DNA from: Octopus vulgaris
Lineage: Eukaryota
Assembly (NCBI GenBank): GCA_951406725.2
Contig: OX597833.1
Location: 17,236,001-17,300,000 of the forward strand
Direction: 5' to 3'
Length of the DNA: 64,000 nt
Part shown: positions 7,286 through 62,817 of the stretch, in pieces
Layout of the letters: each line of letters begins with the position of its first letter
How positions within the stretch are numbered: the stretch's first letter is position 1
Position numbers and translations under genes: made by a program
Notes under the pieces: generated by a model
Told to the model about the DNA's origin: nothing
The model's input: the letters and a program-made list of their open reading frames with translations, nothing else
Database searches by the model: none

Positions 7286-9872
7286 CAGACGGTGTAGTTG
7301 ACAAATTACACGGTGTTAGAGGAATGTGTAAACGGAAAATAAAATTTCCGGTGGGGAATTTTAACAGTTTGAAAATTAACAAGTCTAAAAGAAATTTAAA
7401 CGGATCAACAACATATAGAATGGGAATATATTAAAAGTTATGATGGTTAATCGAGAAATTCTTTCGTTTTATTTGGTTTCTTTGTGTTTTGATGTCTGAG
7501 TGGAAAGCTGTTTATTCGTTAAGTGACAGCTAAGGACACACCGGTTTATTTTGCATTACTTGCAAGTGCTTGTGACATTCGATTGAAAGAACTGCTATTT
7601 AAGATTGATATATAAAAAAATAATAAAGGAGAGGGTGACAGAGAAAGACAAAAGGCAAAAAAAGCTGTCGGGCAAATTTTATTATCAACTATGTAATACA
7701 TTTATTAACAGATTTCTTGTAGAAAATAATAATTATATTTTAAAATAACAATGCTTGCTCAAACAAACTTCTAATTAAAAAAAAAATATTTTGCATATAT
7801 TTTTTTTTCTCGGAGTGGTCAGTAATTACAGATGTTTATTTTAGAATACAATTTTTTTCTTTTTCTTTTTAGTATGTTAATATGGTTGAGTAGAATTTGT
7901 CACTCTGTTATATAGATAGCTATGCTGCGAATTTAAAACTTTTTTGAAATAAAAAAAAATAATTAAATAATTTAGTATATGGGTAAAAAAAATAAATAAA
8001 TATGATTTAATTAAGGTTAGGTCATATTGAACCTGGTTCGAAATAGAAGAAAATCTTCTTCAGATTAGAATGGAATTTAGTTTATAGCTGATCAGGTTAC
8101 ATTGACAAACTTAAAACACATTCGATATCTTGAACTGTTGTTGAAAATGAACAGGCTTTTGGCAAAAAAATATTTATTGCATAACTAATGATTGACAGAG
8201 TTACGAAATCGTTGTTATATCTTTCCAGCTTTAGGTGTACCATAATATTGGATTTTACTGTTCGTTTACTAGCACTTACACTCAGAAAAACAGGAAATCA
8301 TTTCTAATTTGTCTAATATGCGATGCCTAAGATATTTTCTAGCGACAAATATTGAGTGAAGCCCATGAGACAAGTCTGTTAAGTAGGCAAGCTAAAGCAG
8401 TCAGGTCCAGTTTTCGTTCGTCCAACTAGCCAGCGGCTAGCTACTTTCAATGTATTAATGGTGTTCTTACTTAAATTAACTACCCTTCCGAATATTAGCT
8501 CGCATTTTATTTTTATTTGTTTAGCTTACATTTACATGGAAAAGAAAACTTCGTGCTTTGAAAATGACCATTTAAATGTTATATCAAAATAAGTACTTAT
8601 TTTCTTAAGTATTATTACTGTTTGCGTGAAATAAAATTTGTTCTTTTACAAGGGATTGTTAAATAATAAAAGTGTCAATTAAATTTGGGGGAAATATTCA
8701 CCATTCCTTCGTTCAAATAATAAACTATAATAGGTAAATTGCTTTAAAACTTTGTAAATAGTCTAGATTCAAACATACTGGATTTAGTAAAAATAGTACC
8801 GGATGATAAATTTAGAAATTTTATTTCATTTTATTATTATTATTTTTTTTTTACTTTCTGTTGACTTTGTGAATGAAGATTTGCGTAACAAAAATAAAAT
8901 AGAATGGAATTAATTAAAACAAATATAATTTAAAAGACAATCCACTCATTGCATTTTAATGAGATATGAGTTCAACTTCATTAAACTAATTTGTCTGTTG
9001 TTAATTATTGTGGTAAACTTGAAATGACAGGAAGGAAGGAAGGAAGGTGGGGAAGGAATGAAGGAAAGTAAGTGGGGGGAAGGTAAGAAAGAAAGAAAGA
9101 AAGAAAGAAAGAAAAGAGTGACGGAAAAGAAAGAAAGAAAGAAAGAAAAAAGAGACAGAAAAGAAAAAGAAAGAATTCTTCTGGATCAATGAGTCATGCT
9201 GCAAGTTTGTAACATCCGTTATAAACACCACACTACCACCAACACCACTACCAACACCACCACCAACACTACCACTAACACCTCAAAGTGACAGTTTATA
9301 CCTTCTTACGCGGAAGATATTAAAAAAAGAAAAACTTCTATAAGAAATATTATTTAAAGACCATTGACGAGTATATACTTATACAGATATATATATATAT
9401 TTCCTAAGTTATTTTAGTATGTAGTAGACATGAAGTGTGTCGCTATACTGAAGATGGGAAACATGAGCCCGCAGGCTAAGGTTTAATTTTTTTGATTGGG
9501 ACAGTTGCACTAAGTGCTGTTGGGAATATGTAACTCTTCAGTCTCTTGTAAAATTAATCATTGATTTGTTACATATGCATGAGTCGGGTCAAATTTCGAG
9601 AAGGAGCTGCTTATCTCCTATCCCTTTCCTCTGGGCATAATATTCTTGGGTTCGGGGAAAGATATAAACGATTTTCACACAGAAAAGAAGAAAAAAAAAG
9701 CTCCACTATTTTGACAAAGAACGCTAGAAGGATAAAACAATGGTTTCATACCTCTTAGCAATCGTTAAGTGTTATGCAATAAATGTTTTTTTCCTCCACT
9801 TCCAATAACAGAAGCTTTAACTTCTAAGTTCTAGAATATCGAAAGTGTTTCAAGTTTGTCTATGTGGCTTTT

Positions 9873-10628
9873 AAATTTTGGTAGAAGGCCAGCAATTTTG
9901 TGGGAGAGGTAAGACGATTACATCGATCTTCAGTACTCAACTGCCAATTGTTTTATCGGCCTCGAAAGGATAAAAGGCAAAGTCGGCCCCGGCGGGATTT
10001 GAACTCAGAACGGATATTTGGAAGAAATACCTATTTCTTTACTACCCACAAGGGGCTAAACACAGATGAGACAAACAAGGACTGACAGACGGATTAAGTC
10101 GATTATATCGACCCCAGGGCGTAACTGGTACTTAATTTATCGAGCCCGAAAGGATGAAAGGCAAAGTCGACCTCGGCGGAATTTGAACTCAGAACGTAAC
10201 GGCAGACGAAATACCTATTTCTTTTACTACCCACAAGAGGCTAAACATAGAGGGGACAAACAAGGACAGACAAACGGATTAAGTCGATTACATCGACCCC
10301 AGTGCGTAACTGGTACTTATTTAATCGACCCCGAAAGAATGAAAGGCAAAGTCGACCGCGGCGGAATTTGAACTCAGAACGTAACGGCAGAAGAAATACT
10401 TATTTCTTTACTACCCACAAGGGGCTAAACACAGAAGGGACAAACAAGGACAGACATAGGTATTAAGTCGATTAAATCGACTCCAGTGCGTAACTGGTAA
10501 TTAATTTATCGACCCCGAAAGGATGAAAGGCAAAGTCGACCTCGGCGGAATTTGAACTCAGAACATATCGGCAGACGAAATACCGCTAAGCATTTTGTCC
10601 GGTGTGGTAACGATTCTGCCAGCTCGCC
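9873..10628 (-). mobile_element. SINE family B tetramer (head plus four units, 184-185 bp period)
   Basis: GGTATTTC junctions at about 10584, 10400, 10215 and 10031. B box GAGTTCAAATTCC; core GGTCGACTTTGCCTTTCATCCTTTCGGGGTCGATAAA, Meta-domain-like from recall. Confidence 0.9.
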
Positions 10629-10654
10629 AACTTTTATAACAGTAATAATCGTTG

Positions 10655-18027: not shown

Positions 18028-18112
18028 GGTTAGGATTTTAGGGTTAGGGTTAAGGTTTTAGAGTTAGGGTTAGGGTTGTAAGGTTTAGAGTTAGGGTTTT
18101 AGGGTTAGGGTT
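18028..18112 (+). repeat. Degenerate interstitial (TTAGGG)n
   Basis: TTAGGGTTAGGGTTAAGG...TTAGGGTTAGGGTT. Confidence 0.85.
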
Positions 18113-20863: not shown

Positions 20864-21750
<887 letters not shown>

Positions 21751-22516
21751 AATAAAAGAGCTGTGCAATGGTTCATCCCCAGTTCTTAAACACAGAACCA
21801 GACTGAAGTCAATTCCTTAAACCGTGAGAAATGGAAAAGCACTACAGTCCTGAGAAGAAGGGTGCCACCTTCAAACCATGTTTCTTTCCACACTGACACA
21901 ACCTCCATGCGTCCTTGGCGCGAGCATCACCAATACATATTCCCACCACCTTTTCTTGTCCTCTTAAAATACTTTGTTTAGCAAAATTTTCTTTTAGGTA
22001 TAACAACCTTTTCTTGCAAGTATGAAACCGCCGCCTCCTCTGCTGCGTGATTAAAGGCCTATTTGGCTGCTATTTTTAGCACATATGACAGCTACCACAA
22101 TGACTGGAATATCTTCGTCAACATGTGCTTTCTCGCAGACGAAAGAGTTCTCATGTTTGGCTCGTTACAATGGAAACAAGCATTCGCTAAAATTACCCAA
22201 AATTTTCAACCCTTTGATAGCTAATAACTATTTATTGATTTATGGCGAAAATGATTTCCATGACATTGATTAGCGCATAAAAGTATATCATTACACTAAA
22301 TATGAAATCAATTCGAACAGAAATTACAGAAACTGAAAATTGGTAGTCAAACGCTGTCGGGGTAGATAAAATAAGTACCAGCGGATCACTAGGGTCGATG
22401 TAATTAACTCACCCTCTTTCACGAACTTGTTGACCTTGCGCCAACATTTGAAATCAATATGTGTCTGCTTTTAAATTGGTAAGTGAAAGCGTGTGATGAA
22501 ACAGTTACTATGTTAA

Positions 22517-22930
22517 GGCGGTGAGCTGGCAGAAACGTTAGCACGCCGGGCGAAATGCTTAGCGGTATTTCGTCTGCCGCTATGTTCTGAGTTCAAATCC
22601 CGCCGCGGTCGACTTTGCCTTTCATCCTTTCGGGGTCGATTAAATAAGTACTATTTACGCACTGGGGTCGATGTAATCGACTTAATCCGTTTGTCTGTCC
22701 TTGTTTGTCCCCTCTGTGTTTAGCCCCTTGTGGGTAGTAAAGAAATAGATATTTCGTCTGCCTTACGTTCTGAGTTCAAATGCCACCGCGTTGACTTTGC
22801 CTTTTATCCTTTCGGGGTCGATTAAATAAGTACCAGTTACGCACTGGGGTCGATATAATCGACTTAATCCGTTTGTCTGTCCTTATTTGTCCCCCGTGTG
22901 TGTAGCCCCTTGTGGGCAGTAAAGACAGAA
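22517..22930 (+). mobile_element. SINE family B dimer with 17-bp TSD
   Basis: TSD GAAACAGTTA(C/A)TATGTT at 22498-22514 and 22931-22947. Confidence 0.9.
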
Positions 22931-23369
22931 GAAACAGTTAATATGTTGCTCTATCAATCACAAGACAGTGGTTTCGATTCATTGACAGGGTGTTGCGTTT
23001 TTTCTTTTCTTTCTTTCTTTTTTTTTTTTTTTTGAACGAAACACTTCATTCCAAGTTGCTCCAGTTCTTTCAGCTGTAAATGAGTAACCATGCGACGGGC
23101 CCGCGTCTCGTTCAGGGAGAATGATCTCAGTCACTTACATAAAGCATGGAAACTGGGTAACCGGCCCCATGACACCTAGGATTTGAGACATTAATGTCCA
23201 GGGAGTTTACTTTTATTTAAGTCGGTAACGAGTCCTTTTCAGTATAAACCAGAACCATTTAATTTGTAGATCAGATTTCATCCAAGAGCCGATTAATCTG
23301 CAAGAGCCACAAATTGCCCTTTCCTTTTTTTTTTTTTTTGTCAATCTTGTGGGTTCGATAAAATACATT

Positions 23370-23723: not shown

Positions 23724-24057
23724 ATTTTCTTTAATCATCAAAGATTATTGATGATTCAAATTATGAAAAGCATTTTATTAAGCTAATCCTCCATTTTCGT
23801 ATAGGATTTATTATAAAACTACCATCCTTAGATTAAGTTTTTGCCGTCTTCCAACCCTCACCCTAATCTCCCCCAACCCCAGCTTTACTGCGGGTTGTTC
23901 GAGTAAATGTCCGTTGCTTGGTAGGTTTCTGGTAATCAGTTACTGAATGATGTGTGATAACCAAGAGAGATTAAGGTTTCCAGACATATATACATACATT
24001 TATTTATTAACGGAGACTCTTACCTATCATAATACAGAAACACTTCCCATGGCAGCA

Positions 24058-24445
24058 GGGCGAAATGCTTAGCGGTGTTTCGTCTGCCGTTACGTTCTGA
24101 GTTCAAATTCCGCCGAGGTCGACTTTGCCTTTCATCCTTTCGGGGTCGATAAATTAAGTACCAGTTACACACTGGGGTCGATCTAATCGACATAATCTGT
24201 TTGTCTGTCCTTGTTTGTCCTCTCTGTGTTTAGCCCCTTGTAGGTAATAAAGAAATAGGTATTTCGTCTGCCGTTACGTTCTGAGTTCAAATTCCGCCGA
24301 GGACGACTTTGCCTTTCATCCTTTCGGGGTCGATAAATTAAGTACCAGTTACACACTGAGGTCGATCTACTCGACTTAATCCCTTTGTCTGTCCTTGTTT
24401 GTCCCCTCTATGTTTAGCTATTTGTGGGCAATAAAGAAATAAGAA
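24058..24445 (+). mobile_element. SINE family B dimer, 5'-truncated
   Basis: Two units joined at AAGAAATA|GGTATTTCG. Confidence 0.9.
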
Positions 24446-27824: not shown

Positions 27825-27958
27825 TAACCGTAATTTTAACCCTAAACCCTAACACTAACCATTAAACCTTAACCCTTACCCTGGCCTAAACATAACCATA
27901 ATCATTAAGCCCTAAATCCTTAACCCTAATCATAAACTCTAATCCCAATCCTTACCCA
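27825..27958 (-). repeat. Highly degenerate (CCCTAA)n tract
   Basis: AACCCTAAACCCTAACACTAACC...TAACCCTAATC. Confidence 0.6.
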
Positions 27959-29870: not shown

Positions 29871-29921
29871 TGCATCTCTGTTCTATAAAAGCCTAACAAC
29901 CACTAAAGAAACAAATGAAAA

Positions 29922-30514
29922 GGCAGCGAGCTAGCAGAAACGCTGCACGCCGGCGAAATGCTTAGCCATATTTCGTCTGCCGCTACGTTCTGAGTTCAAA
30001 TTCCGCCGAGGTCGACTTTGCCTTTCACCCTTTCGGGGTCGATAAATTAAGTACCAGTTACGCACTAGGGTTCACGTAATCGACATAATCCGTTTGTCTG
30101 TCCTTGTTTGTCGCCTCTGTGTTTAACCCCTTGCGGGTAGTAAAGAAATAGGTATTTCGTCTGGCGCTATGTTCTGAGTTCAAATTCCGCCGAGGTCGAC
30201 TTTGCTTTTCATCCTTTCGGGGTCGATAAATTAAGTACTAGTTACGAACTGGGGTCGATATAATCGACTTAATACGTTTGTCTGTCCTTGTTTGTCCCCT
30301 CTGTGTTTAGCCCCTTGTGGGTAGTAAAGAAATAGGGATTTCGTCTGCCGTTACGTTCTGAGTTCAAATTCCGCCGAGGTCGTCTTTGCTTTTCATCTTT
30401 TCGAGGTCGATAAATTAAGTACCAGTTACTGGGGTCGATATAATCGACTTAATCCGTTTGTCTGTCCTTGTTTGTCCACTCTATGTTTAACCCATGGGCA
30501 ATAAAGAAATAAGA
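29922..30514 (+). mobile_element. SINE family B trimer
   Basis: Three ~184-bp units; ends AAGAAATAAGAA. Confidence 0.9.
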
Positions 30515-30629
30515 ACCTACTTCATATGGTTTCTCTTGTGATGATTGTGAACTCCAAGCACGCAGCGAGGCAGGGCTTGCTTCCCACATTAACAAGCATA
30601 AACCTACTCAATATCACCATCATTTAGTG

Positions 30630-32850: not shown

Positions 32851-32861
32851 TCGACGGTATA

Positions 32862-33092
32862 GGCGGCAAGCTGGCAGAAACGTTAGCACGCCGGGCGAAA
32901 TGCGTAGCCGCATTTCGTCAGCAGTTACGTTCTGAGTTCAAATTCCGCCGAGGTCGACTTTGCTTTTCATCCTTTCGGGGTCGATTAAATAAGTGCCAGT
33001 TACGCACTGGGGTCGATATAATCGACTTAATCTGTTTGTCTGTCGTTGTTTGTCCTCTGTGTGTTTAGCCCCTTGTGGGTAGTAAAGAAATA
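32862..33092 (+). mobile_element. SINE family B monomer (tail 2) inserted in an opposite-strand SINE B relic
   Basis: Preceded by GGTAT and followed by GGTATTTG. Confidence 0.88.
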
Positions 33093-33172
33093 GGTATTTG
33101 ATCTCAGAATGTCGAGGTGGAAGAAATGCCGTTAAGCATTCTGCCAGCTCGCCGCCTTAGATATATAAACGA

Positions 33173-34754: not shown

Positions 34755-34972
34755 TTCTTTTCTACTCTAGGCACAAAGCCCCAAATTTTGGCGGGGAGGG
34801 GGGGGCAGTCGATTAGATCGACCCCAGTACGCAACTGTACTTAATTTATCGACCCAGAGAGAGGACAAACAAGGACAGACCTCGGCGGAATTTGAACTCA
34901 GAACGTAGCGGCAGACGAAATACCGCTTAGCATTTCGCCCGGCGTGCTAATGTATCTGCCAGCTCTCCACCT
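34755..34972 (-). mobile_element. Internally deleted SINE family B
   Basis: Head and tail present; AGGACAGAC|CTCGGCGG junction. Confidence 0.75.
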
Positions 34973-36210: not shown

Positions 36211-36569
36211 GTAGCTAGACTAATGTCTATTATGGAATATTGAAGTCAATCAGGTTTTTTGTAGGTTCAACACGTTAATCTATAACGATTGGTCGATTTA
36301 CCCATCATGTGAGTTTTGAACATTGGTCGAGTCCTGTGTTGTGATTGGTTGAGAGTATTGTGCGGGATTTGGATCAAAGATCCAATCCCATTGCGTGTAA
36401 TACGCTCTGAAACAACTAATTGGTATCATTTCTGGAGCCTACCTTTTTACCATAGATTGGCGCAAAAGATTCTCTAAGGGCAAAAGAGTGAGAGTTTTTC
36501 ATCAAGGCAAGTTATGCTGATTTCCTGCCGTTTTCCACCAGAGAAAAATTAATATAACAGAGCACATAA

Positions 36570-36925
36570 GGCGGCGAGCTGGCAGAATCGTTAGCACGCC
36601 AGGTGAAATGCTTAGCAGTATTTCGTCTGCCGTTACGTTCTGAGTTCAAATTCCGCCGAGGTCTACTTTGCCTTTCATCCTTTCGAGGTCGATAAATTAA
36701 GTACCAGTTAATCCGTTTGTCTGTCCTTGTTTGTCCCCTCTGTGTTTAGCCCCTTGTGGGTAGTAAATAAATAGGTATTTCGTCTGTCTTTACGTTCTGA
36801 ATTCAAATTCCGCCGAGGTCGACTTTGCCTTTCATCCTTTCGGAGTCGCTAAATAAAGTACCAGTTGTGTTCTGGTATCTAATCCACTGGAAATTATCGG
36901 GTTGTGTATACAATAGAAAGAGTAT
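36570..36925 (+). mobile_element. SINE family B dimer (tail-2 unit then tail-1 unit)
   Basis: Junction AAATA|GGTATTTCG near 36774. Confidence 0.85.
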
Positions 36926-37876
36926 AACGCACATTCAACGACGACCCAGAAAGAATAAATGGAATTAGAAGAAAAAAAGACTAACTTCTGTCTCTATTAG
37001 AAGAGGAATAATCTAAGGTAACCTTTTCCGTTCATTTCTGCTTTGCTTTGGTACTATCAACTTTTATCGGCATATTAAATAGGACTGATATCTCAGATAC
37101 AAATGCTCTGATTGGACAATCAAACATGTTTTGTATTTGGTCGGCACCAAGTTATTCGATGCAGTTGTTAAAGCAACCAGTAAACATATTTATTGGAGGA
37201 ATTGATAAATGGTTCGGATTACAAAAGAGAACCTTGAAAAGAGGTAAATAAAAAGGACCAATGGCGAGCTGGCAGAATTGCTAACACGTCGGGCAAAATG
37301 CAAAGCAGCGTTTTTACCGGCTCTTTACGTTCTTAGTTCAAATCCCGTCGAAGTCAGCTTCGTTTTGCATCCCTTCTGGATCAATAAAAATAAACTATAA
37401 ATCAAGAACTGGTTTCGATGTAATCGACTTGTCCGCTTCCGACAAAACTACTGGGTCTTGAATCCTGCAACCTACCGGAGTCTCTTTCAAAGGGAATATC
37501 ATGATCCCGGTCATTTATACGCTATGGATCCCAGATAACTAGTCTTGTGAGTTTTAGGGTTCACGGGGAAGAATATTCATCATGTTAGATATTACAAGGA
37601 TTGCTGCACCGCACGTCGCATTGCCACACTACGGCAGAGATTTATGAGCGCCCGACAGCATTTCAGATTGCAGGTGTCAGAGTACTTTGGAAAACACAAA
37701 GCAGATTTCTTGAAACGAATCTCATCGAAAACCTAAGCCCTGGGCAAACTGACCCTCAATCCCTGTTTTATATGAAATTGCAAGTGACAAAATGGCGAGT
37801 GACAAAACTTTTTCAGTCTTCTACAAGAAGCTTCATGGCAGCATTTGACTTTCCGACTTGTAATTCTTGTTACGGA

Positions 37877-38166: not shown

Positions 38167-38424
38167 TAAAAAAATTTTTAATTCTTGTTACAGAATTCAT
38201 GGCATTTTTCGACAGTGATCACCAACAGCTCTGCTAACCCCAAAAACTCAGGCTACAGGCGATATTTTGCATATCCATCCTGCAAACCTAGAATAAAATC
38301 AAAGGTTTTATATATCCTCGCACATATTCCCCTTAAATTTTACATATCAAATTGCAAATTCTGCACGCATTTTCTGGCATACAGTTGTCTCGTTATCTTG
38401 CCTTCTTTTAATCTTCCTGTATAT

Positions 38425-39005
38425 TGGTTTCAAATTTTGGCACAAGGCTAGTGATTGTAAGTGAGGGTGCTAGTCGGTTACATCGATCCCAGTGCTCAGC
38501 TGGTACTTATTTTATTGACCCCGAAAGGACGAGGGGCAAAGTCGACCCCGATGGTATTTGAACTCAGAAAGTAAAGTCAGACGAAATACCTCTTTCTTTA
38601 CTACCCACAAGGGGCTAAACACAGAGGGGACAAACAAGGACAGACAAACGTATTAAGTCGATTACATCGATCCCAGTACGTAACTGGTACTTAATTTATC
38701 GACCCCGAAAGAATGAAAGGCAAAGTCGACCTCGGTGGAATTTGAACTCAGGACGTAGCGGCAGATCAAATACCTATTTCTTTACTACCCATAAGGGGCT
38801 AAACACAGAGGGGACAAACAAGGACAGACAAACGGATTAAGTCGATTATATCGATCCCAGTGCATAACTGGTACTTAATTTATCGATCCCGACAGGATGA
38901 AAGGCAAAGTCGATCTCGGCGGAATTTGAACTCAGAACGTAGCGGCAAACCAAATACCACTAAGCATTTCGCCCGGCGTGCTAACGTTTCTGCCAGCTCA
39001 CCGCC
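38425..39005 (-). mobile_element. SINE family B trimer ending in tail type 1
   Basis: Junctions at about 38590 and 38774. Confidence 0.9.
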
Positions 39006-39239
39006 TGGCGATTGTTAGATCAAGCATGAAGGATGCAGAAACACACTAGATTCATTCTGGTACTTATTCTAATAATCTTTTTTTTTTTTACAAAATTTCT
39101 CGGGTGCGGGGATGTAAACAAACCAACACTGGTTGTCAAATAGTGCTGGGTGTACAAACGCGGACAAGATCATCCCACATATATAAACGGTCAAGCGTTT
39201 TTGTATCTAGTCCTGGAAATTATGTTTGTATACGACAGA

Positions 39240-45850: not shown

Positions 45851-46099
45851 AATGTGTCTGTCTATCAGTCGGTCTGTCTGTCTGTCTGTCTTTGTGTGTG
45901 TGTGTGTGTGTGTGTGTGTTTCGCCTATGGCTCTTCCCGAAGATATAAACCTATGTACACGACTGGCTTCATTCGTTTTCCATCGAAAAAAAAAATTACA
46001 TAATAGTGGCGCTGTGGTGGAGTAAACTTGCCCGAGGTGCTGCGCGAACATCAAATCGTCACCAATAATGACGCAGAAGTTAACATAACGTCTGCCGAA

Positions 46100-46460
46100 G
46101 GCGGTGAGCTGGCAGAATCGTTAGCACGCCGAGCGAAATGCTTAGCGGTATTTTGTCTGCCGTTACGTTCTGAGTTCAAATTCCACCGAGGTCGACTTTG
46201 CCTGTCGTCCTTTTGATGTCGATAAATTAAGTACCAGTTACGCACTGGGTTCAATATAATCGACTTAATCCGTCTGTCTGTCCTTGTTTGTCTCCTCTGT
46301 GTTTAGCCCCTTGTGGGTAGTAAAGAAATAGGTATTTCGTCTGTCTGTACGTTCTGAGTTCAAATTCCACCGAGACCAATTTTGCCTTTCATCCTTTCTG
46401 GGTCGAAAAATAAGTACCAGTTGAGTAGTGGAGTAGATGTAATCTACTTACCCTCTACAA
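46100..46460 (+). mobile_element. SINE family B dimer
   Basis: Junction AAGAAATA|GGTATTTCG at 46330/46331. Confidence 0.88.
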
Positions 46461-46560
46461 CCATTTACCTTATTGACAACCATTTACCTCATTACCTATT
46501 TACTGTCGGTTAAGACTTAACAATGAGTGAAAAGTGACCGCGTAGATTTCATTGGACACA

Positions 46561-47198: not shown

Positions 47199-47346
47199 TA
47201 TTTCTTTACTACCCACAAGGGGCTAAACACAGAGGGGACAAACAAGGACAGACAGACGGATTAAGTCGATTATATCGACCCCAGTGCGTAACTGGTACTT
47301 AATTTATCGACCCCGAAAGGATGAAAGGCAAAGTTGACCTCGGCGG
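47199..47346 (-). mobile_element. 5'-truncated SINE B (tail 2) with 11-bp TSD
   Basis: AATCAAATACC at 47188-47198 and 47353-47363. Confidence 0.9.
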
Positions 47347-59493: not shown

Positions 59494-60243
59494 TAATAGT
59501 AATAATAATGAAATTATTGTATGCAGTGCTCAGGTGCACCACAACTTGTCAGAAAGTGCGTATAAAGCATATGCAGTAATGTACAAATGTCTGGAAAGTG
59601 AACAGTGTATGAGTCAGATACATGCTTGCGTGTGTATGGAGGGGAGAAAATCAGGTGTAGTGTTGGCGAATCTCAAGAAGCATGGAAGTTTTGAACGATG
59701 CAGTGCTCCGACAACTAACAACTGATGTCAGCAGTTTATTCCATACTTCAGCAACTCTTAGCGTGAAAAAATGCTTCCGAAAGTCATGGGAGCTGTGCAG
59801 TTTTCTGACTTTGTAAACATGTCCATGGGTGTTAGACAGGTGGAGTTTGAAAAGGTGCTCAGAGTTTTTATTAGTAAGATGGTTGATAATTTTATGGGTG
59901 TCTGCCAAGTCACCTGCCAGACGTCGGAGTTTCAATGTGTCCATGACCAGGGAAGTAAGGTGTTCAGAATATGGCAAATGCCTGATGGAGGGTATTCTCT
60001 TGGTCGCACGTCGCTGAACGGTTTCCAGACGATTAATATCCTGGGCAAGATAGGGGTTCCAGAATGGTAATGCAAATTCCAGGTGAGGCCGCACCATAGC
60101 TATATAAAGCCTCAGATAGACAGCCGGAGAGCGGCTCACAAAGGACTTGGTAAGTGATGGAACTGAATGAACACACACACCACAAAAATATATGTGAAAA
60201 AGCGTTATTTTTACACGGCGCAAGAACTTTTTCCTCAACGTAA
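59371..60243. mobile_element. Mariner-type MITE enclosing a CR1 fragment
   Basis: TA flanks; ~39-bp TIRs TTA(G/C)GTTGAGGAAAAAGTTC(G/T)TGC(A/G)CC(A/G)TGT. Confidence 0.8.
59405..60158 (-). pseudogene. CR1-clade LINE 3' end (ORF2 C-terminus, 3' UTR, (ATT)n tail)
   Basis: LYIAMVRPHLEFA..FWNPYL..DI..LETVQRRATKRI...LPYSEHL...LRRL.GDL...KI...THGH..K....RKHFFT.RV...WN.L. Confidence 0.92.
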
Positions 60244-60484
60244 TATTTGTTCTAAGTCCTGATACATACAAGCACTAGTTCGTGTGTGCATGCACGCACA
60301 GAAGCTACAAGCCGCTGATCCTTTGGCAGATAGACTAGTAATCTAAATAATACGTTAGCTGAAACATGTTTTCGAAGAGTTTCTAAAAGGATATCGATAA
60401 TCTCTTGCAGGAATAGTGTGATTTTTACCCACATGGAACATTCGGTCACACATCTACCTGATTAGACATTGCAAGGCGATGGTG

Positions 60485-61640: not shown

Positions 61641-61699
61641 CGTCACGGCTTGGCAGAGAGAAGCAGTTTTTTTAATATATATACTTATACCAAGGAGTA

Positions 61700-62120
61700 G
61701 CTAAGTTGATTACATCGAACCCAGTAGTCAACTGGTACTTGATTTATCGACCCCGAAAGAGATGAAAAGCAAAAGTCGACCTCAGTGGAATTTGAACACA
61801 GAACGTAATGATGGATGAAATATATATTTCTCCACTGCTCTCAAGGGGCTAAACATAGAGGGGACTATGTCGTTGAGAAGCAAGCTTCATATTTATTTAT
61901 TGCCCACAAGGAGCTAAACATAGAGGGGACAAACAAGGACGGACAAACGGATTAAGTCGATTACATCGACCCCAGTGCGTAACTGGTACTTTATTTATCG
62001 ACCCCGAAAGGATGAAAGTCAAAGTCGATCTCGGTGGAATTTGAACTCAGAACGTAATGATGGATGAAATATAGCTAAGCATTTCGCCCGGCATGCTAAT
62101 GATTCTGCAGACTCGCCACC
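61700..62120 (-). mobile_element. SINE family B multimer, rearranged
   Basis: Two cores plus a duplicated tail-2 segment. Confidence 0.8.
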
Positions 62121-62134
62121 TTAAATTCCCTATT

Positions 62135-62817
62135 TATTGGTTTCAGTTTTTGGCACAAGACCAGGATTTTAGGGGGAGGGTTAAGTCGATTATATCGCCC
62201 CCAGTGATCATCTGGTACTTAATTTATCGACTCCGGAAGGGATGAAGAGCAAAGTCGACCTCGGGGGAATTTGAACTTAGAACGTAATGACGGGTGAAAT
62301 ACCTATTTCTTTACTACCCTACAAGGGGCTAAACATAAAAGTGGACAAACAAGGACAGACAAACGGATTAAGTCGATTATATTGACCCCAGTGCGTAACT
62401 GGTAATTAATTTATTGAGTAATTAATTTATTGAGTAATTAATTTTATCAAGGCGGCGAGCTGGCAGAAACGTTAGCACGCCGGGCGAAATGCTTAGCGGT
62501 ATTTTGTCTGCGTTACGTTGTGAGTTCAAATTCCGCCGAGGTCGACTTTGCCTTTCATTCTTTCGGGGTCGATAAATTAAGTACCAGTTACGAACTGGGG
62601 TCGATGTAATCGACTTAATACCTATGTCTGTCCTTGTTTGTCCCCTCTGTGTTTAGCCCCTTGTGGGTAGTAAAGAAATAGGTAATTAATTTATTGACCC
62701 CGAAAGGATGAAAGGCAAAGTCGACCTCGGCGAAATTTGAACTCGGAACGTAAAAACGGGCGAAATACTTCTAAGCATTTCGTCCGGCGTGCTAACGACT
62801 CGCCCAGTTCACCGCTT
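62135..62817 (-). mobile_element. SINE family B dimer interrupted by an opposite-strand SINE B
   Basis: Continuity across 62417/62681. Confidence 0.85.
62451..62680 (+). mobile_element. SINE family B monomer (tail 2), nested
   Basis: TSD GGTAATTAATTTATTGA at 62401-62417 and 62681-62697. Confidence 0.9.

Follow-up and report, generated by a model that had tools for sequence, protein, structure and literature searches.

The window analysed here, a stretch of 64,000 nucleotides (64 kb) of the Octopus vulgaris genome, is rich in a SINE of ~233 bp, the family of which gives 38 matches and occupies ~10.7% of the sequence. The element is non-coding; no array unit is found among the listed open frames of at least 120 amino acids in the window. 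Its size, copy number, target-site duplications and truncation identify it as a SINE: clear duplications of 15–17 bp are present at three of the 13 loci searched, a 5-bp duplication and an imperfect one were found at two more, the search gave no convincing duplication at the other eight, and the copies at 24057 and 47345 are truncated at the 5′ end, as is typical of target-primed reverse transcription. ARAGORN reported no tRNA genes in the window and Rfam gave no matches to it at the gathering threshold. Every match to the tail within the window falls in a copy of this element. Octopus tRNA-derived SINEs (OK, OR1 and OR2) were reportedly described by Ohshima and Okada in 1994. Stretches that we take to be A-box-like and B-box-like, spotted by eye against the box consensus, are present in the head and the unit of the element; in the 9873 array they lie near 10611–10621 in the head and near 10547–10557 in unit 1.

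Part of the family is arranged in tandem. An earlier note, made from the letters of the stretch, had proposed eight arrays of two to four units (named here 9873, 22517, 24058, 29922, 36570, 38425, 46100 and 62135), and all eight are present (Table 1). The 9873 array has four units, the most in the window, those at 29922 and 38425 have three each, and those at 22517, 24058, 36570, 46100 and 62135 have two; homogenised long arrays (four or more middle units) do not occur in the window. The intact tail-2a units measure 183–186 bp, in agreement with the proposed period of ~184 bp, and the tandem unit is shorter than the SINE itself (184 of 233 bp). Tandem Repeats Finder gave periods of 182–184 at at least five of the eight arrays. 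The single head that the note had given to each array was found in every case, with the qualifications that the 24058 head is 5′-truncated and that an inverted full-length copy (62449–62680) splits the first unit of the 62135 array and so places the head of this array at 62817. The units keep a common register and the extra units start at the same point with few point changes, as claimed: the 12 junctions of the eight arrays carry GGTATTT exactly in nine cases and with one change in three. The junction 17-mer has 17 matches with up to three mismatches in the window (two of them opposite-strand readings of the near-palindromic junction) against 0.34 expected, and none of 100 shuffles reached 17. 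A last unit with tail 1, noticed earlier at 9873, 36570, 38425, 46100 and 62135, was confirmed at all five. Head sequence lies upstream at nine of nine loci, i.e. the eight arrays and a ninth, complex locus at 61680–62122; this locus is absent from the earlier note, as are the two forms of tail 2 (2a and 2b) and three 2a copies that are out of register.

Table 1. Copies of the SINE, their arrays and their flanking duplications in the 64-kb window.
Feature	Position	Strand	Remarks
9873 array, head, single, old type (GAATC)	10585..10632	-	7 differences from young head
9873 array, unit 1, tail 2a, 184 bp	10401..10584	-	begins GGTATTT
9873 array, unit 2, tail 2a, 185 bp	10216..10400	-	
9873 array, unit 3, tail 2a, 184 bp	10032..10215	-	
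9873 array, last unit, tail 1, old	9868..10031	-	0.207 from tail-2 majority, shared core
22517 array: young head + 2a + 2b	22515..22933	+	
17-bp duplication around 22517 array	22498-22514 and 22931-22947		starts within 2b end (GAA)
24058 array: 5′-truncated head + 2a + 2b	24057..24445	+	
29922 array: young head + 2a + 2a + 2b	29918..30515	+	
36570 array: head + 2a + tail 1	36568..36923	+	2a unit with 27-bp deletion (157 bp)
Imperfect duplication flanking entire 36570 array	36554-36567 and 36924-36934		
38425 array: young-type head + 2a + 2a + old tail 1	38421..39006	-	
46100 array: head + 2a + tail 1	46098..46470	+	
62135 array: old head + 2a + tail 1	62131..62817	-	first unit split by inverted copy 62449-62680
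Full-length 2a monomer, antisense within 62135 array	62449..62680	+	at GGTAATT
17-bp duplication of the 62449..62680 copy	62401-62417 and 62681-62697		
5′-truncated 2a monomer in non-family DNA	47199..47345	-	
15-17-bp duplication of the 47199..47345 copy	47363 and 47198 downward		starts GGTATTT on both sides
Full-length 2a monomer, antisense in old copy	32861..33092	+	at GGTATTT
5-bp duplication of the 32861..33092 copy	32856-32860 and 33093-33097		
Ninth, complex locus: old head + 2b + 22-nt filler + partial tail + tail-1 unit	61680..62122	-	

The 20 tail-2 ends in the window comprise 16 of form 2a (15 full ends and one at 61825, where the tail is incomplete and degenerate and includes some 2b letters) and four of form 2b. 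GGTATTT, with zero to two changes, comes next at all 16 form-2a ends and at none of the four form-2b ends, which in every case finish (A)GAA and are four to five letters off the motif. Thirteen of the 16 form-2a ends are in register inside the element. The other three are found elsewhere: those at 33092 and 62680 lie antisense inside other copies and that at 47199 lies outside family DNA. They show zero, zero and one change from GGTATTT, whereas sites with no more than one change make up 0.0024 of window positions. The duplications of these three copies (5, 17 and 15–17 bp at 33092, 62680 and 47199, respectively) all begin with the first G of the motif, so that the motif must already have been in the target before insertion. 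The duplications of the out-of-register copies are the strongest evidence that the arrays owe their register to retrotransposition with a target preference.

On the 5′ side of the inverted insertion in the 62135 array there are nearly two further copies of the target duplication (62418–62448, + strand), which resemble the target-derived extra nucleotides of LINE 5′ junctions. The head at 22515–22612 (+ strand) folds into a single long hairpin and not a cloverleaf, and the target motif directly follows the loop on its 3′ side. A role for a hairpin at the near-palindromic junction was considered and rejected: the stability of the whole monomer is ordinary (z = −1.66) and the out-of-register targets, inspected by eye, have no palindrome. 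Longer pairing of a read-through RNA at these targets was likewise rejected, as agreement past the motif is at chance level (10, 10 and 8 of 15 letters).

An origin of the units in DNA, through gene conversion between copies, unequal crossover or slippage, has been put forward for the SINE-derived satellites of squamates. Here it could not produce the three out-of-register insertions with duplications, and we consider it very improbable. Also against it are the single register across different residents and the switch from old to young sequence, which falls within ~20 nt of the motif and not anywhere in the 120-bp core. The likeness within arrays that the earlier note had named as a sign of local slippage is present but slight: the distance between units is 0.084 within arrays (nine pairs) and 0.097 between arrays (162 pairs), with p = 0.05 over all sites and p = 0.23 at non-CpG sites. 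The nearest neighbour is a unit of the same array for four of 12 units (~1 expected from a hand count) and a unit of another array for eight, two truncated or deleted units having been left out of the pool. Units 1 and 2 of the 38425 array share three letters, which together with the slight likeness favours a DNA-level process, as does a 79-bp tandem of secondary origin in one public run (below); the units of the 9873 array have no derived letters in common.

The expectation of the earlier note that the youngest unit would stand next to the head was not borne out. In order of position, the units diverge from the tail-2 majority by 0.054, 0.048 and 0.034 in the 9873 array, 0.075, 0.048 and 0.035 in the 29922 array, 0.054 and 0.068 in the 38425 array, 0.061 and 0.062 in the 22517 array, and 0.034 and 0.041 in the 24058 array, and no gradient of this kind is seen among the tail-2 units of these five arrays. 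Such a gradient is not required, since the target is made anew at each junction. The note's main interpretation, that units enter a resident copy at GGTATTT and have their 5′ end resolved by homology, is retained. Its addition of one unit per event is less certain, given the likeness within arrays (p = 0.05). Multimeric copying or local duplication probably produced some of the arrays, above all those that end in 2b.

The last tail-1 units differ from the units before them in age as well as in tail. Their pairwise distance over the shared core is 0.198 (n = 6), compared with 0.100 for the 2a units of the arrays (n = 12). The old-type head letter is found at five of the six loci that end in tail 1 and at none of the four loci that have tail 2 only and a complete head (p = 0.048), the exception being the 38425 array, where a young-type head stands before an old last unit. 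Over nt 1–20, the first and the last unit of a locus have 11 non-majority letters in common against 3.4 expected (p = 0.008, 720 pairings), ten of these 11 coming from two of the six loci, and three letters against 2.6 expected past nt 20; sharing confined to the first 20 nt is what a retained duplication predicts. At the 61680–62122 locus seven private letters are common to the first and last unit within the first 20 nt. Letter 3 of the motif is T in six of six invaded old copies and in two of nine un-invaded ones (p = 0.007), and old copies with C at this place have been spared from invasion. These contrasts in head letter, shared letters and motif letter come from small samples and were chosen after the alignment had been viewed. 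In a rough comparison, six of eight old heads with the motif have been invaded, compared with one of 21 other exact motif sites, a difference that a 7-nt guide alone does not explain, so that longer pairing or easier 5′ joining must be assumed. The last tail-1 unit is most likely an older resident copy, with 2a copies inserting into residents at GGTATTT and one head usually being kept by homology; we infer that the last unit of the 9873 array (9868–10031) is such a resident.

Some of these loci have small irregularities. Nine nucleotides from the start of the unit itself (46089–46097, + strand) adjoin the head of the 46100 array; this piece occurs nine other times in the window, always within units, matches the young sequence and not the resident, and may be a duplication remnant or the product of a template jump. 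The 22-nt filler after the 2b end of the ninth locus (61860–61886, − strand) matches 20891–20910 weakly (E = 0.088) and is possibly a piece of another repeat brought in by read-through. In the tail-1 monomer at 34807, ~26 nt of the core (34860–34885, − strand) have been exchanged for tail-2 sequence, which suggests template switching or conversion between the forms.

The age and the tail type of the last units also bear on the proposal that all arrays were retroposed from one or a few multimeric masters, with no insertion into residents, which we regard as quite improbable. Six last tail-1 units that are twice as diverged as the 2a units and carry the other tail contradict this as the sole source of the arrays, as do the double-head forms described below. 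It probably explains only some of the 2b-ending arrays: all three of these have units of similar divergence and young or truncated heads, there are shared variants within the 22517 and 24058 arrays, and one duplication flanks the whole 22517 dimer. None of the four form-2b ends belongs to a plain 2b monomer, which fits the copying of whole multimers. Runs of four T residues are few within the arrays and missing from three of the seven checked, which makes read-through plausible. The earlier note had listed multimeric masters as an alternative to self-insertion; they are probably part of the mechanism instead, since an RNA needs sequence past the tail in order to carry GGUAUUU.

Rolling reverse transcription of a one-unit circular RNA would account for a precise, repeated junction, and the circle would carry GGUAUUU after the tail. 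The head upstream at nine of nine loci speaks against this, as does the fact that the out-of-register 2a copies are single units in three of three cases, two of the three with full heads; nor do the units of the 9873 array show the common derived letters of a shared circle. Retrozyme-type circular RNA repeats carry a self-cleaving ribozyme in each unit, and in the window no Rfam family, ribozymes included, was matched at the gathering threshold. We consider the circular route extremely improbable.

Four of 24 listed public sequence runs (two of raw reads and two of contigs) were compared with the head and one unit, in window coordinates. The in-register joint from 22747 to 22564 is present in all four, thinly, with one read, two reads, one contig and three contigs. 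The element matches large numbers of contigs in runs X8 and X9, contig depths not being taken as copy numbers, and the raw-read runs X22 and X23 gave 14 and 226 matching reads from 12.9 million each, samples that are unrepresentative and from which no frequencies were taken. In run X8, the contigs of which are labelled as another organism, the 2a tail forms a loose end before 22564 in 314 contigs. Among the 15 of 314 joints that are listed for this run, mostly with the intervening letters not given, there are several double heads: a head that runs through nt 15 of the unit and is followed by a second head (22578 to 22515, five contigs, a 15-bp duplication), a second head after a junction (22752 to 22514, seven contigs) and another such head (22758 to 22514) with three letters between in one joint. 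The double-head contigs are the predicted product of direct 5′ joining. In ten contigs of the list the tail leads into AGAA of the head (22747 to 22531), the target expected for a 2b end. The self-insertion with homology proposed in the earlier note is supported by duplications that start at the motif, older and more diverse last units, matching heads, resident letters in the first 20 nt and double heads. Exact tail patterns had no matches in metagenome, viral and prokaryote contigs.

Compared with 22682–22760, run X23 shows a 79-bp tandem in which 13 nt from the following unit are added to the 2a tail (55 reads with 34 starts). A second tandem, also built from the tail, has its joint at GGAATT. 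These tandems are satellite-like offshoots of the element, and secondary amplification does happen.

Form 2a, the young form of the element, always ends before GGTAWTT. Most likely it enters this motif through target-primed reverse transcription, primed, as seems likely, by the end of its own RNA, and so homes into resident heads and junctions; we give this reading a probability of about 0.68. Pol III would transcribe a source copy within an array and partly stop at the TATTT of a junction, giving an RNA with the end tail-GGUAUU(U). A LINE protein would then nick the DNA, and priming would work where the nicked strand pairs with the RNA end. In a resident copy the upstream overhang (~5–17 nt, starting with GGTATTT) would anneal to the same sequence in the cDNA, and this annealing would drop the second head and add a headless unit in register; direct joining instead would leave two heads. 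The motif is seen to be remade at each junction, so that any junction could again serve as a target. Read-through transcripts probably copy several units at once, and the arrays would be the source of the guide and its product alike, with multimeric sources belonging to the model.

Several steps of this scheme have counterparts in other systems. Annealing of the RNA 3′ end to the target raises the insertion of R2Ol (PMC6530143) and of SART1Bm and R1Bm (PMC7265360), the annealing sequence lying past the 3′ end in all three, and annealing and direct joining are described as alternative pathways for LINE 5′ ends (PMC4245944). In human cells, Pol III terminates at TATTT in 42% of cases (PMC8466645); the RNA of any array would end in GGUAUUU if termination were alike in the host, for which the mammalian figure may not hold. 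As a counterpoint, the same TATTT is also present in the head, where Pol III must read through it.

Self-insertion is well supported, and guidance by the RNA, judged from the letters at ends and targets, is likely. Forms 2a and 2b have nearly the same tail, different ends and correspondingly different targets, and for this reason the RNA end would appear to choose the target. The motif could instead be picked by a sequence-preferring endonuclease of a partner LINE, self-insertion itself being real, although we think this unlikely. Such an enzyme would suit a motif that is constant at 16 of 16 ends and duplications that start at the same G, and Tx1-, R4/Dong- and R2-type LINEs are reported to have been recently active in O. 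vulgaris (PMC13282606). It does not readily explain why 2b, with its nearly identical tail, ends and inserts at (A)GAA (the duplication at 22931 and the ten-contig joint from 22747 to 22531), or why the duplications range in length from 5 to 17 bp; 2a and 2b could still use different LINEs.

R2Ol, R1Bm and SART1Bm (PMC6530143, PMC7265360) are reported to resemble the SINE in that RNA past the 3′ end pairs with the target at the nick, which helps or steers priming, and in that upstream target sequence in the RNA favours full-length insertion. They are described as autonomous, with specific endonucleases and host-repeat targets, whereas the SINE is non-coding and aims, less strictly and with duplications of variable length, at a motif of its own head. 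Set against site-specific elements of the R1, R2 or Tx1 kind, it has the fixed target (all 16 2a ends) but no reverse transcriptase or endonuclease of its own; it works like site-specific LINEs at the priming step and is not one of them. Squamate sSat1–3 (PMC10702118) likewise have tandem units shorter than the SINE, a longer terminal unit and few units at many loci, and are explained in that account by unequal recombination and concerted evolution, with same-locus insertion merely mentioned. The arrays described here differ from sSat1–3 in keeping both ends, in having an older last unit and in duplications that tie the register to retrotransposition, and they are short and not homogenised (0.084 within against 0.097 between). 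A large proportion of B2 and Dip copies are reported in head-to-tail multimers of up to eight units (PMC8466645). Each unit there has its full length, and whether it was inserted into a tail or copied from a dimeric template is a question that the authors do not decide; the extra units here are headless and enter inside the head. For the Sauria SINE and Bov-B, which share a LINE protein, the 3′ end is reported to correlate with the first duplicated letter (PMC13295347), i.e. one letter compared with about seven, self-directed, here. Zepp, a non-LTR element, also accumulates within its own copies (PMC3446292), but is an autonomous LINE with one large cluster per chromosome, and the cited account, as far as drawn on here, describes no fixed in-register headless unit. 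We found no description of this type of array or of a self-homing SINE in the open literature, although subscription papers and Repbase or SINEBase sequences could hold one, and the portion of the octopus repeat annotation drawn on here (PMC13282606) does not mention such arrays. The known kind to which the element appears closest is 3′-annealing retrotransposition; what would be new is a SINE that targets a motif of its own head.

If the reading is correct, the element is a case in natural sequence of the last few nucleotides of a SINE setting its target, and a self-matching end makes it its own landing pad. Two tail forms with different ends and targets amount to a natural controlled comparison of targeting by an RNA end and by an endonuclease. 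The arrays also suggest how retrotransposition could turn dispersed SINEs into tandem repeats, a change for which the squamate study credits mainly recombination, and this route from scattered repeats to satellite-like arrays would be built in if the RNA end guides insertion into older copies. Polarised arrays record the order of insertion, self-insertion could spare host genes, and repeat annotation and age estimates of the family would need to handle heads and units separately. More tentatively, and at somewhat less than even odds, one self-insertion may have equipped the SINE with a heritable guide in its RNA, the junction being a new target, a primer-binding end of seven letters and a leaky Pol III stop all in one. 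This would have turned a promiscuous element into a self-homing one with no change of protein, filled most of the suitable residents and seeded satellite-like arrays throughout the genome of more than one species.

Two further features of the window lie outside the SINE family. A 207-residue open frame occupies 59654–60274 (− strand), and its final stretch reads like what we take to be the end of a decayed LINE reverse transcriptase. A degenerate TTAGGG-type tandem repeat, interstitial and telomere-like, is present at 18028–18112 (+ strand), with a related tract at 27841–27942.
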